A stretch of DNA of 8,280 bases from a virus (Duplodnaviria > Heunggongvirae > Uroviricota > Caudoviricetes). A program made the translations under genes and the position numbers. The notes under the pieces are model-generated. The model was not told the DNA's origin, made no database searches, and saw only the letters and a list, made by a program, of their open reading frames with translations. Location: the IMG/VR virus record IMGVR_UViG_2690316227_000016; one strand, written 5' to 3'. Shown here piece after piece: positions 1,946 through 3,105 of this stretch (position 1 is its first letter; the number at the start of each line of letters is the position of its first letter).

Positions 1946-1971
1946 CGGGTATCACAGATATGACAAACACG

Positions 1972-2004
1972 AAAAAAGCGGCCCCGATATGGAGCCGCCT
2001 TTCT
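1972..2004 (-). terminator. Hairpin flanked by an A-run on plus and T-run on minus; probable terminator for the minus-strand operon
   Basis: GCGGC...GCCGC stem (1978-1998) with A6 at 1972-1977, which is T6 on the minus strand downstream of the stem. The plus-strand side has only CTTTCT, so termination of alpA is weaker. Lies about 90 bp past the minus-strand gene that ends at 2094. Confidence 0.3.
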
Positions 2005-2093
2005 GAACAATTAACCCGCTGCGCCTTATGTGTATGTGATCCCAAACATAAGCACGGGGATGATAGCCGCTATCAGGCTGGTGGGCAATGCAA

Positions 2094-2282
2094 TCAGTCT
2101 GGTTCAGTTCGTTGCCATACCTGCAATGAGCGCTTTTCCCTATACTCTTTAAGGAATTGCTCAAGGGCAAAAGCACATGGCGCGAATCTTTCTGATTCAT
2201 GCTCTATCTTTCTGCGCCGTCTTTTCCGTGCCGGTGATAATGTTTTGGTCAATTCTTTATCAGTCATTGTGTTGTCCTGCAT
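2094..2282 (-). CDS. Hypothetical small basic protein (62 aa; alternative start at 2267 gives 57 aa with a better SD)
   Basis: Co-directional with, and 42 bp downstream of, the Arc-like gene. Contains an Arg/Lys-rich stretch RKRRRRK. An AGGA lies 9 nt upstream of the internal ATG at 2267. No family recognised, and ORFs in other frames overlap it. Confidence 0.3.
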   Translation of the reverse strand: MQDNTMTDKELTKTLSPARKRRRRKIEHESERFAPCAFALEQFLKEYREKRSLQVWQRTEPD

Positions 2283-2324
2283 AGCAATGCGCCGTAATAC
2301 CTCACACCACGGCGCTGATAGTTT

Positions 2325-2516
2325 TTATCCTTTGGGTTCTATGCCGCGCCGCTTTAGTTCAGTGCGCCCCAACTCTTTAAGCCAGTTGGCTAGGCTTATG
2401 CCGTCGCTCTGTGCTTCTTTGTCGAATTGCTCTTTTAGCTCTGGAGAAATTCGCATTCTGAATTGTGGGGATTGCCCGTCCCCTTTAGGGCTTTTATCGC
2501 GTTTGATTGTTGACAA
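2325..2516 (-). CDS. Arc-like ribbon-helix-helix DNA-binding protein (putative repressor)
   Basis: The segment SPQFRMRISPELKEQFDKEAQSDGISLANWLKELGR follows the phage P22 Arc pattern (PQF-x-LR...G-x-S-x-N). Only the TTG start at 2516, with AGGTGA 4 nt upstream on the minus strand, keeps the predicted beta-strand; the first ATG (M21) would remove it. Confidence 0.5.
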   Translation of the reverse strand: MSTIKRDKSPKGDGQSPQFRMRISPELKEQFDKEAQSDGISLANWLKELGRTELKRRGIEPKG

Positions 2517-2561
2517 GTGGTCACCTATTGAATTAGCCTTTCCATTGTTAGGTGGTCACCT
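2517..2561. promoter_or_regulatory. Divergent control region with two GTGGTCACCT direct repeats (2517-2526, 2552-2561) and a TTGACA hexamer (2510-2515)
   Basis: Exact 10-mer repeated 35 bp apart. Each contains the odd-centred palindrome GGTCACC. The repeats lie between the divergently oriented Arc-like gene and the Icd-like genes. A matching -10 was not found. Confidence 0.4.
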
Positions 2562-2588
2562 TAACACAAGAGCACTTAAAAAAGCAAA

Positions 2589-2619
2589 GCCCCGCAAGTG
2601 TCATTACCACTCGCAGGGC
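2589..2619 (+). promoter_or_regulatory. Leader stem-loop upstream of the first Icd-like gene
   Basis: GCCCCGCAAGTG (2589-2600) and CACTCGCAGGGC (2608-2619) pair at 10 of 12 positions around a 7-nt loop. No T-run follows, so it is not a terminator. Confidence 0.3.
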
Positions 2620-2650
2620 TTCTAACCAACAACGTAAACTAGGAGCCGTT

Positions 2651-2848
2651 ATGGTTGCCGTAAATCATATACCACACCTTGTACACACACAAACGGCCTT
2701 TGTGTGGCGTTTTCTGGCCCTGAGTGCCGGAGAATCTCAAATCATCCACGTAACCGCCTGGACGGAACGCGAAGCGCGTAGCCGTTGCCCGTCCGGTTGT
2801 GTTGCTGTATTCGCCGCCCGTATTCGTCAGGGGTCACATCATGCGTAA
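2651..2848 (+). CDS. Icd-like small protein, copy 1 (host cell division inhibitor Icd-like family, tentative)
   Basis: 65 aa with an AGGAG 6 nt upstream of ATG 2651. Shares the motifs FVWRF...T...TEREAR...FxARIRQG with the ORF at 3135. The family name is from recollection of P4-like prophage annotations, not a search. Confidence 0.5.
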   Translation: MVAVNHIPHLVHTQTAFVWRFLALSAGESQIIHVTAWTEREARSRCPSGCVAVFAARIRQGSHHA

Positions 2849-2868: not shown

Positions 2869-3105
2869 TAACGGGGCTGTATGCTTCCCCCGTCGCCCAC
2901 ATGGCGACCGGGTTTAGCAGCCTGAATACTGTAGCGGACAGCCGCTTATATTCCGATATGCGGTTTTTTTGTGTCCGTAAGCCTACCCATACCCGCATTA
3001 TGGCGGGGCGTAACGGGGGAGCCTTTGCGCTCGCTGGTTCCTACAGTGCCAGTCTGCTAACCCTGTTACGTCTCGCCACCCCGTTTAGCAGCGTAGTAGC
3101 GAGAC
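2869..3105 (+). repeat. Duplicated non-coding module between the Icd-like genes
   Basis: TAACGGGG at 2869-2876 and 3011-3018. GTTTAGCAGC at 2912-2921 and 3083-3092, followed by GTAGCGGACAG and GTAGCGAGAC respectively. A near-complementary CTGCTAA-CCC element sits at 3054-3063. Small hairpins at 2871-2893, 2892-2908 and 2992-3007. Confidence 0.4.
2934..2970 (+). terminator. Intrinsic terminator-like hairpin plus T7
   Basis: GCGG-aca-GCCGC (2934-2945) and a CCGC...GCGG stem (2942-2963) followed by T7 (2964-2970). It lies inside the apparent N-terminal extension of ORF 2799..3299, which argues that the extension is non-coding. Confidence 0.5.

Follow-up and report, generated by a model that had tools for sequence, protein, structure and literature searches.

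A probable Arc-like RHH switch upstream of the Icd-like/replication operon in a capsid-forming PICI of E. coli

Introduction

The immI region of phage P22 encodes two small RHH repressors, Arc and Mnt, and contains the overlapping promoters Pant and Pmnt. A single 21-bp operator is bound by a tetramer, and the controlled operon begins with ant. A different kind of immunity is RNA-based. The C4 antisense RNA of P1 immI and P4 (C4/CI), located upstream of icd, provides immunity by acting on an Icd-containing operon, after transcription start. In Gram-positive PICIs (SaPIs) the genes of the master repressors Stl and Rpr point away from the operon for excision and replication, the control region separates the two, and Stl is inactivated by binding helper-phage proteins (PMC6092414).

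For Gram-negative PICIs the founding paper reported transcription in one direction; whether a global repressor exists was considered unclear (PMC6092414). Unlike in the Stl systems, induction requires the activator AlpA. According to published induction data overexpression of AlpA is enough to induce EcCICFT073. Hence, any repressor must be overcome by AlpA, directly or indirectly. The gene after alpA was described in a 2025 preprint as 'of unknown function' and variable between islands. A 2026 survey filed HicB and YlcI/YnfO genes of PICIs as accessory or toxin-antitoxin, listing HicB among the toxin-antitoxin modules. Arc/Mnt-like systems as a kind are already known, yet their role in Gram-negative PICIs appears to be undescribed in the searchable literature. 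Here we present a region of an E. coli satellite which is likely to be a genetic switch, i.e., an autoregulated RHH repressor would shut the Icd/replication operon.

The satellite and the comparison sets

The window, i.e., the whole stretch of 8,280 nucleotides which was analysed, is a capsid-forming PICI (cf-PICI) satellite of E. coli. It is 99.8% identical to the tRNA-Pro island of E. coli MS 21-1; the EDL933 island is 98% identical to the window. The gene order is int, alpA, Icd-like, DUF4222, RepA helicase, SSB, PerC and the capsid genes. Matches were found in 1,429–1,737 database records. Repression is presumed to act on the gene at 2651..2848 (plus strand), with which the rightward operon begins. 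Its product is Icd-like according to NCBIfam phage_ICD_like (1.4e-17), PHROGs 1743 and 29966, and the RefSeq annotation of the 99.8% identical island. Downstream, 330–570 nt to the right, the element carries a complete C4 antisense RNA with its target module. This C4-type module could be the main immunity function of the element.

Related loci were compiled in sets of 77–80 from many Enterobacterales genera; operator counts are based on 80 loci, promoter counts on 77 distinct ones. When the Int, AlpA, Icd, DUF4222 and RepA proteins of the window were used as tblastn queries against the loci from other genera few matches were obtained. These elements are too diverged for a shared gene order to be recognized by tblastn, and the first divergent ORFs were therefore read directly.

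The RHH protein and its small basic partner

The minus strand at 2325..2516 encodes an Arc-like RHH protein of 63 aa with a TTG start. Homologues of 63–64 aa with a conserved N-terminus are present across Enterobacterales. The first-pass annotation, made from the letters alone, had considered the TTG start probable. This is borne out by the conservation of the N-terminal 20 residues and by the start codon itself, which at the same position is ATG in 58 and TTG in 17 of 77 loci. The designation as Arc-like was equally well chosen. The protein matches PHROG 228, 'Arc-like repressor', at 5e-7, and when a profile of 24 homologues was run against the PDB the best solved relative was P22 Arc (1b28; E 0.0025, residues 11–57). 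The β-strand PQFRMRIS (residues 17–24) aligns with PQFNLRWP of Arc. The AF2 monomer (pLDDT 80) has helices at residues 25–37 and 42–56; residues 18–24 are extended without being assigned as a strand, which is what one expects of a monomer modelled alone. In a fold search with this model Arc was matched with a target-normalised TM of 0.86 and an rmsd of 1.2 Å. The best PDB folds all belonged to Arc or other RHH proteins (NikA, CopG, AmrZ and RHH antitoxins), with target-normalised TM values up to 0.88 and E-values which are weak because the RHH domain is tiny.

All curated Pfam and NCBIfam RHH models scored under their cutoffs. The Pfam HicB model reached 20.4 bits (cutoff 21), covering residues 17–47 only, the Pfam Arc model 12.4 bits (cutoff 20.4; E 0.14) and the YlcI/YnfO model NF041551 12 bits (cutoff 30; E 0.17); a weak RelB match was also found. 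Considering the Pfam Arc score the protein is best placed with the Arc-like RHH proteins at the superfamily level, not in the curated Pfam Arc family. Sequence comparison shows that the RHH gene is real and Arc-like.

The RHH gene is followed on the same strand by a small basic partner gene at 2094..2267, which encodes 57 aa; an alternative ATG at 2282 would yield 62 aa. The ORF 2094–2282, noted previously as a protein of 57–62 aa, is confirmed, and the shorter form is likely: Met6 is invariant, most database entries have 57 aa, and an AGGA is positioned 7 nt ahead of the ATG at 2267. The alignment with PHROG 21027, a family of unknown function, also starts from Met6 (1.6e-15). Homologues are almost all from E. 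coli and share the conserved core ERFAPCAFALEQFLKE. In the AF2 model the N-terminus, rich in Arg and Lys, is disordered, and residues 29–59 form a single long helix. Searches of Pfam, NCBIfam and PADLOC returned neither a toxin family nor any other match, in agreement with the earlier remark that the partner resembles no recognised toxin.

Two operators

The sequence GTGGTCACCT occurs exactly twice on the plus strand, at 2517–2526 and 2552–2561, 35 bp apart, as the first-pass annotation had stated. With up to one mismatch these remain the only two sites in the 8,280 bases, and further operator copies above chance were not found elsewhere in the window. At least two matches of the GTGGTCACCT type were present in 10 of 200 shuffles of the window, so the significance from the window by itself is modest.

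The sites are better viewed as 12-bp pseudo-palindromes, operator O1, AAGTGGTCACCT, at 2515..2526, and operator O2, AGGTGGTCACCT, at 2550..2561, an exact match of the 12-mer 35 bp from O1. The palindrome GGTCACC, noted earlier in each repeat, is not supported as the recognition unit; the conserved symmetry is AGGT-NNNN-ACCT. O1 adjoins the start codon of the RHH gene, includes its Shine-Dalgarno sequence (AGGT, minus strand) and is situated in the spacer of the rightward promoter. O2 lies over the -10 and the start site of the leftward promoter; in the rightward transcript it corresponds to positions +5 to +16 or thereabouts.

What decides the matter is the comparison of loci. In 62 of 80 related loci a second copy of the 8-nt start-adjacent core exists (up to one mismatch), mostly 41–45 nt upstream of the start codon; when the core of another class was taken as a control, the figure was 8%. 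The motif recurs 33–35 bp upstream in direct or inverted orientation, as one would expect for a symmetric site. Further, across the 77–80 loci the bases directly 5' of the RHH start codon covary with the DNA-reading residues of the β-strand. The operator core, i.e., the central 4–6 bp of both sites, covaries with RHH residues 18 and 20 in about 10 specificity classes. The residue pair TQ goes with the 6-nt core TACGTA, QK with TGGCC, QR with TGACCA or TGGTCA, HK with GGGCCC, PH with TGTACA or TGTGCA, AQ with TACACA and MN with TCTATA. Because the loci share ancestry these classes are not fully independent, and about 10 is the honest count. Taken together, covariation and the recurring second copy argue that both sites are operators, and by sequence comparison O1 and O2 are identified as the cognate operators of the RHH protein. 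At this comparative level the protein appears to bind symmetric sites via side chains of the β-strand. Changing Q18/R20 to T/Q should move the predicted binding to AGGTACGTACCT.

Seven genomes carry two such loci, with different operator classes in three and the same class in four; consequently, heteroimmunity is not strict.

Promoters, terminators and leader

A consensus promoter scan of the window called neither of the two promoters described below; both emerged only from the alignment of 77 loci, in which they are conserved. The rightward promoter of the Icd-like/replication operon, P_R, is located at 2510..2539 on the plus strand and consists of TTGACA (2510–2515), an 18-nt spacer and TAGCCT (2534–2539). 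Its -35 coincides with RHH codons 1–3 on the opposite strand. Of the 77 distinct loci, 74 have TTGACA and 74 use TCA as the Ser2 codon of the RHH gene; the first base of codon 3 is always A though the residue varies (T, I, R, M). A -10 of the form TAnnnT follows at a 17- or 18-nt spacer in 59 of 77 loci against a background of 2.5% per position; the -10 of the window, TAGCCT, is weak. In the related loci the start of the first rightward gene is always situated some 100 nt further downstream, past a conserved leader.

The leftward promoter of the RHH-partner operon, P_L, is at 2558..2587 on the minus strand. Its -10, TGTTAAGGT (2566 to 2558), is of the extended type; TTGCTT (2587 to 2582) is a weak -35-like element. 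In 65 of 77 loci TGnTAnnnT occurs beside O2, its position being fixed (background 0.8% per position).

The leftward operon ends at an intrinsic terminator at 1972..2004 (minus strand; terminator scan and RNA fold). The hairpin of -21.7 kcal/mol (z -4.6) is followed by UUUUUU. It is oriented convergently to the end of alpA, and CFT073 retains it despite sequence changes. Another hairpin, a strong one, at 2586..2622 was detected on the minus strand by the terminator scan (RNA fold -27.6 kcal/mol, z -6.0). In the minus-strand reading it represents an intrinsic terminator immediately ahead of P_L, and in the plus-strand reading a stem-loop in the 5'-leader of the Icd mRNA. The A-run and hairpin are retained in diverse loci, those with a YlcI-type switch included. 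RNAalifold applied to the rightward leader returned only a small Shine-Dalgarno hairpin; the large hairpin is length-variable and misaligned.

Between the operators a 6-codon mini-ORF had been noted on the minus strand (2528..2545, read from 2545 to 2528). The position is correct, but as a feature it does not stand: in close relatives the stretch contains no ATG (L003) or only ATG-CAA-TAG (L004). It would start, with no Shine-Dalgarno sequence, some 6 nt away from where the P_L transcript is predicted to begin. A leader peptide is rejected for lack of conservation, and most likely this is a chance ORF.

The proposed switch

The leftward operon would be transcribed from P_L (2566–2558) to the terminator at 2004–1972 and would supply the 63-aa RHH protein and the 57-aa accessory protein. 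RHH dimers are predicted to bind the two AGGT-NNNN-ACCT pseudo-palindromes O1 and O2, 35 bp apart. Since O1 fills the spacer of the strong P_R, its occupation should exclude RNA polymerase from the Icd-like/replication operon. Occupation of O2, which covers the -10 and start of P_L and the first bases transcribed from P_R, would result in negative autoregulation and a second block of P_R. P_R and P_L are opposed, and no more than a few bases separate their predicted start sites. Polymerase should therefore occupy one promoter at a time, and repression of P_R should also free P_L. The combined outcome would be a bistable switch of the P22 immI kind.

The anatomy suits this proposal. The RHH gene is divergent from the early/replication operon and O1 lies in the TTGACA-N18-TAnnnT spacer, the layout of a master repressor. 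At the sequence level the layout of autoregulation is likewise present, as O2 overlaps the conserved extended -10 of P_L, TGnTAAGGT. Exchange of modules is evident from about 10 RHH/operator classes and from replacement by YlcI/YnfO regulators with their own repeats at the same locus. The suggestions of the first-pass annotation, that the two genes run divergently to the Icd operon, that the repeats are operators of the RHH protein and that this may be a master repressor switch, agree well with the covariation, the position of O1 in the conserved P_R spacer and that of O2 on the P_L -10. RHH binding, the direction of regulation and the status of master repressor of the element are what we infer from sequence.

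How a helper phage derepresses the switch is a matter of speculation. A candidate is AlpA-driven transcription of the plus strand, antisense to the repressor operon; such read-through would pass the weak plus-strand side of the 1972–2004 hairpin. From here a broader, rather doubtful reading can be formulated. Gram-negative PICIs and cf-PICIs, EcCICFT073 and EcCIEDL933 included, would be neither unidirectional nor repressor-less. A short immunity operon, transcribed leftward and concealed by a shadow ORF, would encode an Arc-like or YlcI/YnfO-type RHH protein as global repressor, and AlpA would induce by convergent read-through from alpA, silencing the repressor and opening P_R, and not by direct activation of an early promoter. 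If so, the approximately 10 natural classes would amount to a readable recognition code of the RHH β-strand.

Alternative readings

The region could be read from the opposite strand. A 221-aa ORF at 1960..2625 (plus strand), a RefSeq hypothetical protein, might be the true gene; the island would then be rightward-only and the minus-strand ORFs and repeats incidental. RefSeq does annotate this ORF in MS 21-1 (WP_001329530) and a 247-aa version in EDL933; CFT073 has an open plus-strand frame of 428 aa over the same region, with a weak match to a Bro-N remnant at its start (E 0.069), and published maps draw these islands as unidirectional. 'ORF3' is located downstream of alpA, and its transcriptional fusion is activated by AlpA; if ORF3 is the plus-strand frame, as its position suggests, plus-strand transcription crosses the region. 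Against this, the ORF has no family match in Pfam, PHROGs, NCBIfam or PADLOC, its length and end are inconsistent among islands (221 and 247 aa, or 428 aa as a fusion with Icd), and current RefSeq annotates the minus-strand pair in CFT073. As a coding sequence it would run across the terminator hairpin, which lies inside its 5' end, both promoters and both operators. Codon-position and dN/dS-style strand tests were dropped; both frames display the same third-position excess (14059, 12774 and 33524 differences at positions 1, 2 and 3) because the third positions of this antisense frame coincide with those of both minus-strand genes. The strands were instead told apart by survival of stop-free frames, synonymous resampling and conservativeness of substitutions. 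In RHH genes from other genera the sense frame is open in 43 of 43 and the antisense frame in 32 (stops in 11/43). Given the composition of the two minus-strand proteins an open antisense frame is expected by chance: synonymous resampling leaves it open in 47–75% of trials for the RHH gene and in 59–90% for the partner. Only the minus-strand frame shows conservative substitutions, with a mean BLOSUM62 of -0.06 compared to -0.69 in the antisense frame. Frame survival, resampling and substitution pattern make a plus-strand product, which had been named as the case that would overturn the minus-strand assignment, exceedingly unlikely; the 221-aa frame is a shadow ORF, not a gene.

One may then ask what the minus-strand genes do. 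A type II toxin-antitoxin module, in which a HicB-like or RelB-like RHH antitoxin autoregulates via the repeats and the partner is the toxin, had been offered earlier as an option. Many RHH homologues are named 'toxin-antitoxin system HicB family antitoxin' in public databases, the Pfam HicB score is close to its cutoff and accompanied by the weak RelB match, the survey mentioned above points in the same direction, and a two-gene operon with the DNA-binding protein first is the appropriate layout. Occurrence and sequence of the partner do not support this option, however. A relative was found in 0 of 80 loci from other genera, where unrelated cargo or nothing occupies the position. Among 80 IMG/VR loci from E. 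coli the identical partner follows a YlcI-type regulator in 63 and the window-type RHH gene in 17. It matches no toxin family, HicA included, and no PADLOC model; the prediction for it is a single helix with a basic, disordered tail. The RHH protein has no HicB N-terminal domain. The gap of 57 nt between the RHH stop and the partner ATG (2267) speaks against coupling, and a toxin-antitoxin module has no need for operators in a second, outward-facing promoter. We therefore regard this option as highly improbable. Most likely the partner is an E. coli-specific accessory protein, co-expressed with the repressor in the quiescent state, not a toxin and dispensable for the switch. Another possibility is more modest: the RHH protein would be a local autoregulator of its own cargo cassette, the rightward operon would be governed by AlpA and C4 RNA, and the overlap with P_R would be inconsequential. 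Induction of EcCICFT073 by AlpA overexpression alone, the complete C4 RNA and target module in the element and the weak P_R -10 of the window fit this, as does the slot after the RHH gene, which in other genera holds variable cargo as in moron cassettes. Yet in 74 of 77 loci the choice of codons preserves TTGACA within the RHH gene, the -10 is at the right distance in 59 of 77 with O1 exactly in the spacer, the first rightward gene keeps its distance past the conserved leader, and the unrelated regulator of CFT073 has the same two-operator layout around a near-consensus promoter. A purely local role thus appears unlikely.

Comparison with known regulatory systems

The proposed RHH switch and P22 immI have in common the use of small RHH repressors, an operator within or beside the core promoter of the lytic-side operon and a second, opposed and overlapping promoter, such that repressing one favours the other. 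Arc is also the closest solved relative of the RHH protein in sequence and fold, the PQF-x-hydrophobic-R β-strand included. There are differences as well. The window has one repressor instead of two. In its divergent placement relative to the controlled operon the gene corresponds to mnt, yet the sequence is Arc-like. Two separate 12-bp sites 35 bp apart take the place of the 21-bp operator, the first codons of the repressor contain the -35 of the promoter under control, and the controlled operon starts with an Icd-like gene and not with ant. The RHH protein has conserved extensions which are missing from Arc, a 17-residue N-terminal arm and a C-terminal GIEPKG tail.

With Stl/Rpr of the SaPIs the window shares the divergent arrangement around a control region and the presumed role of the regulator in keeping the satellite quiescent (PMC6092414). 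The folds are unrelated, Stl being a much larger helix-turn-helix protein (PMC6092414).

A further comparison is with the YlcI/YnfO regulators (NF041551) of EcCICFT073 and many E. coli PICIs. They occupy the same slot between partner and Icd operon, have the same downstream partner (in EcCICFT073 the identical protein), two direct repeats around the rightward promoter and the same leader hairpin. The protein family and the repeats differ; at the YlcI-type loci a distinct pair of repeats surrounds TTGACG...TATAGT, and the gene starts about 70–90 nt from the promoter, whereas the window RHH gene abuts it. Regulator and repeats swapped together at one locus are in line with the module swapping which is typical of immunity regions.

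C4 immunity is directed at the Icd-containing operon within the same element, and the RHH switch would be an additional, protein-based layer upstream. The resemblance to HicB antitoxins (PF05534) is due to their C-terminal RHH motif, which gives the near-threshold match; the window protein has only 63 aa, neither a HicA partner nor the N-terminal HicB domain, and a different genomic role.

Implications

Even if the switch reading were wrong, the region would still be a clear autoregulated RHH cassette. Under the proposal of an RHH switch the 'gene' after alpA is a shadow ORF over a leftward repressor operon, and the variability reported at this position is swapping of repressor/operator specificity. 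If true, the annotation would be corrected in more than a thousand E. coli genomes, and compact orthogonal repressor/operator pairs would become available to engineers of PICI-based delivery vehicles. The arrangement of promoters and operators suggests that the RHH switch is probably the on/off switch which Gram-negative satellites were thought to lack. It would constitute the missing half of the induction circuit, i.e., that which AlpA or the helper phage must overcome.

Genomic setting

The window is an E. coli phage satellite. An island of strain MS 21-1, located at tRNA-Pro and adjoining yejM, is 99.8% identical to it, and the island of EDL933 is 98% identical; EcCIEDL933, from EDL933, is the prototype capsid-forming PICI (10.1101/2022.09.08.507074). 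After the integrase come, in this order, a small hypothetical gene, an AlpA-like regulator, the RHH/partner region, Icd-like genes, DUF4222, a RepA-type helicase, SSB, PerC and capsid genes. Between both Icd-like genes (2879-3083, plus strand) there is a full RNA immunity module; P1 immI and P4 likewise possess such a module. It comprises a C4 antisense RNA (2996-3083 (+), 71.5 bits, E 8e-13) together with its a1/b1 target sites (2879-2928 (+)), which at 45.5 bits fall slightly short of the gathering score (46.7), and also an isrK-like stretch with a terminator at its end (2892-2970 (+)). The presence of the C4 module indicates that the element has RNA-based and protein-based control layers in series.

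The RHH protein

The ribbon-helix-helix (RHH) gene is a minus-strand ORF of 63 aa with a TTG start (2325-2516), as the first-pass annotation had described. The gene product is a genuine, Arc-like protein: PHROG 228 ('Arc-like repressor') is matched at 5e-7, and Pfam HicB at 20.4 bits, slightly below the cutoff of 21 and covering the RHH part only; for Pfam Arc E is 0.14. When a profile of 24 homologues is used, P22 Arc is the best solved structure (E 0.0025, residues 11-57), PQFRMRIS being aligned with PQFNLRWP of Arc. The AF2 structure model has a pLDDT of 80 and both helices; its top PDB fold matches are Arc variants (target-normalised TM 0.86, rmsd 1.2 Å, 28% identity), followed by other RHH proteins.

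Homologues of 63-64 aa exist in Providencia, Erwinia, Xenorhabdus, Morganella, Proteus, Dickeya, Pantoea, Yersinia, Pectobacterium and others. Their N-terminal segment MSTIKRDKSPKG is conserved, and at the position of the window's TTG the start codons of 77 distinct loci are ATG (58), TTG (17), CTG (1) and GTG (1). This agrees with the TTG start previously considered probable, and indicates that the long form is correct and that 43-aa database entries are truncations. The N-terminal arm (MSTIKRDKSPKGDGQSP, residues 1-17, 2466-2516 (-)) and the C-terminal tail (RRGIEPKG, residues 56-63, 2328-2351 (-)), which Arc lacks, are conserved across classes differing in DNA specificity. They may contact a common partner, e.g., the DNA backbone, another dimer, a protease or an inducer.

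The overlapping plus-strand frame

The case against the minus-strand genes would be that a 221-aa plus-strand ORF (1960-2625) is the expressed product. This ORF is present as placed, as is a six-codon ORF between the repeats (2545-2528 (-)), which found no support as a feature. RefSeq lists the 221-aa ORF in MS 21-1, and a 247-aa version in EDL933, as hypothetical proteins and leaves the minus-strand pair unannotated in both. It has no match in Pfam, PHROGs, NCBIfam or PADLOC. It is an antisense frame whose third codon positions coincide with those of the RHH and partner genes, which share one frame. With synonymous codons resampled, the antisense frame remained without stops in 47-75% (RHH gene) and 59-90% (partner) of trials, i.e., its openness is expected. 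In a set of 43 distinct relatives with 63 codons, none has a stop in the RHH frame, and 32 have an open antisense frame; amino-acid exchanges are conservative for the RHH frame (mean BLOSUM62 of mismatches -0.06), but for the antisense frame (-0.69) they are not. Finally, the ORF spans a terminator hairpin and the predicted two promoters and two operators. By these measures the plus-strand ORF is most probably a shadow ORF and an annotation artefact.

Operators

The two exact repeats reported earlier, GTGGTCACCT, are located at 2517-2526 and 2552-2561. Allowing one mismatch, the window has these two hits, and at least two hits occurred in 10 of 200 shuffles; within the window alone the repeat is only modestly unusual, and the case depends on other genomes. 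We compared 80 RHH loci from other genera, one genome per species. The bases directly 5' of the RHH start codon vary by group and track residues 18 and 20 of the β-strand. These align with Gln9 and Asn11 of the Arc β-strand, which contact DNA bases. T and Q at these positions go with the operator core TACGTA, Q and K with TGGCC, Q and R with TGACCA or TGGTCA, H and K with GGGCCC, P and H with TGTACA or TGTGCA, A and Q with TACACA, and M and N with TCTATA. The consensus site has the form of a 12-bp palindrome, AGGT-NNNN-ACCT.

A second copy of the core with at most one mismatch is found in 62 of the 80 loci, which are related by ancestry and thus not independent, the unit of evidence being about ten classes and the repetition within each locus. 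Mostly it lies 41-45 nt upstream of the start codon, in direct or inverted orientation, as expected of a symmetric site. As a control, a core of another class was present in the same interval in 8% of trials. In the window the candidate operators are O1 (AAGTGGTCACCT, 2515-2526) and O2 (AGGTGGTCACCT, 2550-2561), and no further copies occur above chance. The comparison argues that both repeats are the cognate RHH operators.

Seven genomes carry two RHH loci each (L016/L037, L020/L038, L025/L046 and four Pectobacterium/Brenneria genomes). The copies belong to different operator classes in three of the seven; the four Pectobacterium and Brenneria genomes have the TQ/TACGTA class in both, so co-resident elements are not always heteroimmune.

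Promoters, terminator and leader

On the plus strand RHH codons 1-3 read TTGACA, a hexamer kept in 74 of 77 distinct loci. Out of six serine codons, that of Ser2 is TCA in 74 of the 77, and codon 3 begins with A in every locus while specifying T, I, R or M, which indicates constraint at the DNA level. TAnnnT follows 17 or 18 bases past TTGACA in 59/77 loci (background 2.5% per position); in the window this putative -10 of the rightward promoter P_R is TAGCCT (2534-2539 (+)), and O1 occupies the spacer. Directly right of O2, at a fixed position on the minus strand, 65/77 loci have TGnTAnnnT (background 0.8% per position), a predicted extended -10 element with its 3' half within O2 (TGTTAAGGT, 2566 to 2558 (-), for the leftward promoter P_L). 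Around the operators two opposed predicted promoters are conserved. The predicted starts, ~2546 rightward and ~2551 leftward, are face to face with few bases between them, so only one polymerase could be bound at once.

The leftward unit ends in a strong intrinsic terminator at 2004-1972 (-), a hairpin of -21.7 kcal/mol (z -4.6) with a U-run behind it. A weak terminator-like hairpin within the partner gene (2107-2131 (+)) and a promoter-like match just after it (TTGCCC-17-TATCAT, 2060-2088 (-)) are at chance level in the scan. The leader of the first rightward gene (2575-2660 (+)) is conserved across the 80 loci and CFT073 (L166) even where the gene differs; it consists, in order, of an A-run, a strong hairpin (2586-2622), CUAACCA, a small hairpin with GGAG in the loop, and ATGGCT. 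The small hairpin displays compensatory changes (CGTTA/TAACG versus CGATA/TATCG); the large one, read on the minus strand, has the canonical form of a terminator (z -6.0) and lies just upstream of P_L.

A different regulator in the same slot

EcCICFT073 and its relatives have a YlcI/YnfO-type gene in place of the RHH gene. The CFT073 rightward promoter is TTGACG-N17-TATAGT, and a 13-bp repeat, GTGGGCCACACCT, has one copy in the spacer and one just past the -10. Repeat sequences differ among other islands of this type; the leader hairpin after the rightward promoter is common to CFT073-type islands and the window. A different regulator with its own sites at the same place indicates that regulator and sites are swapped together, as they are in temperate-phage immunity regions. 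E. coli SF26 102-1 (L084, 2608-3852 (-)) carries both types in one island: a YlcI/YnfO-type gene of 101 aa at the switch and, further left, a second RHH of the window's family (57 aa, C-terminal RGIEPKG), then a diverged partner homologue (67 aa).

In CFT073 a plus-strand frame of 428 aa is open and runs into the Icd-like gene, ending at its stop (NC_004431.1, 9767-11053 (+) in L166). Its first 90 residues resemble a Bro-N remnant (E 0.069), and it crosses the terminator hairpin, the partner and YlcI/YnfO genes (in antisense) and the operators. Judging by its location, the frame is probably the 'ORF3' of published reporter fusions (PMC6092414). It would explain RefSeq plus-strand fragments labelled as partial 'Icd-like' pseudogenes; current RefSeq for CFT073 annotates the minus-strand pair.

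The partner gene

After the RHH gene the expected Arg/Lys-rich ORF is present (2094-2282 (-)); it codes for 62 aa, or for 57 aa if the ATG at 2267 is used. The predicted structure is a basic, disordered tail and then a single long helix, and no family matches beyond PHROG 21027 (unknown function). The first-pass annotation had left a repressor switch and a toxin-antitoxin-like pair side by side, and a 2026 survey treats HicB and YlcI/YnfO genes as accessory or toxin-antitoxin genes. The partner as the toxin of such a pair is not supported: it gave no toxin-family match and no relative was found in the 80 loci from other genera, and of 80 IMG/VR loci which contain it, 63 have it after the YlcI/YnfO type and 17 after the window-type RHH. 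In EcCICFT073 an identical 57-aa partner follows the YlcI/YnfO-family regulator. In other genera the 250 nt after the RHH stop are empty or hold unrelated cargo: an Hcp-like protein (PF05638, 3e-19), DUF6998, a weak DUF4231/SLATT-like two-transmembrane protein, a MazE-type antitoxin, or, in Pectobacterium and Brenneria, a 128-aa membrane protein. This variable slot looks like the accessory or defence genes in repressor operons. Because of its distribution and the second regulator type, we regard the partner as accessory to the repressor operon of E. coli islands and as expressed while the island is quiescent; that it binds nucleic acids or has a modulatory function is a guess.

Discussion

The comparative sequence evidence gives good support to a repressor switch controlled through operators. 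RHH dimers would bind O1 and O2, block P_R within the spacer and shortly beyond its start, and limit P_L via O2, i.e., by autoregulation. As the promoters would compete, repression of P_R would also favour P_L. The P22 Arc/Mnt control region resembles such dual-promoter control. As for induction, helper phages turn on alpA; AlpA is an activator of its own promoter and of a downstream 'ORF3' fusion, and its overexpression induces EcCICFT073 (PMC6092414). Since the hairpin at 1972-2004 has a proper U-run on the minus strand only, AlpA-driven transcription may read through. It is conceivable, if rather unlikely, that such read-through, antisense to the repressor operon, silences the operon and lifts repression.

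The cf-PICI papers are silent on a repressor, and a survey of PICIs embedded in helpers reports Bro-zone proteins as well as C4/isrK RNAs, but no RHH. Among the searchable papers, a partial coverage, none combines 'ribbon-helix-helix' with PICI; a description elsewhere is possible. The kind of system is well known. The interest of the predicted RHH switch lies in a stated gap of satellite biology, which it would fill, and in the clean natural series of repressor/operator specificities.
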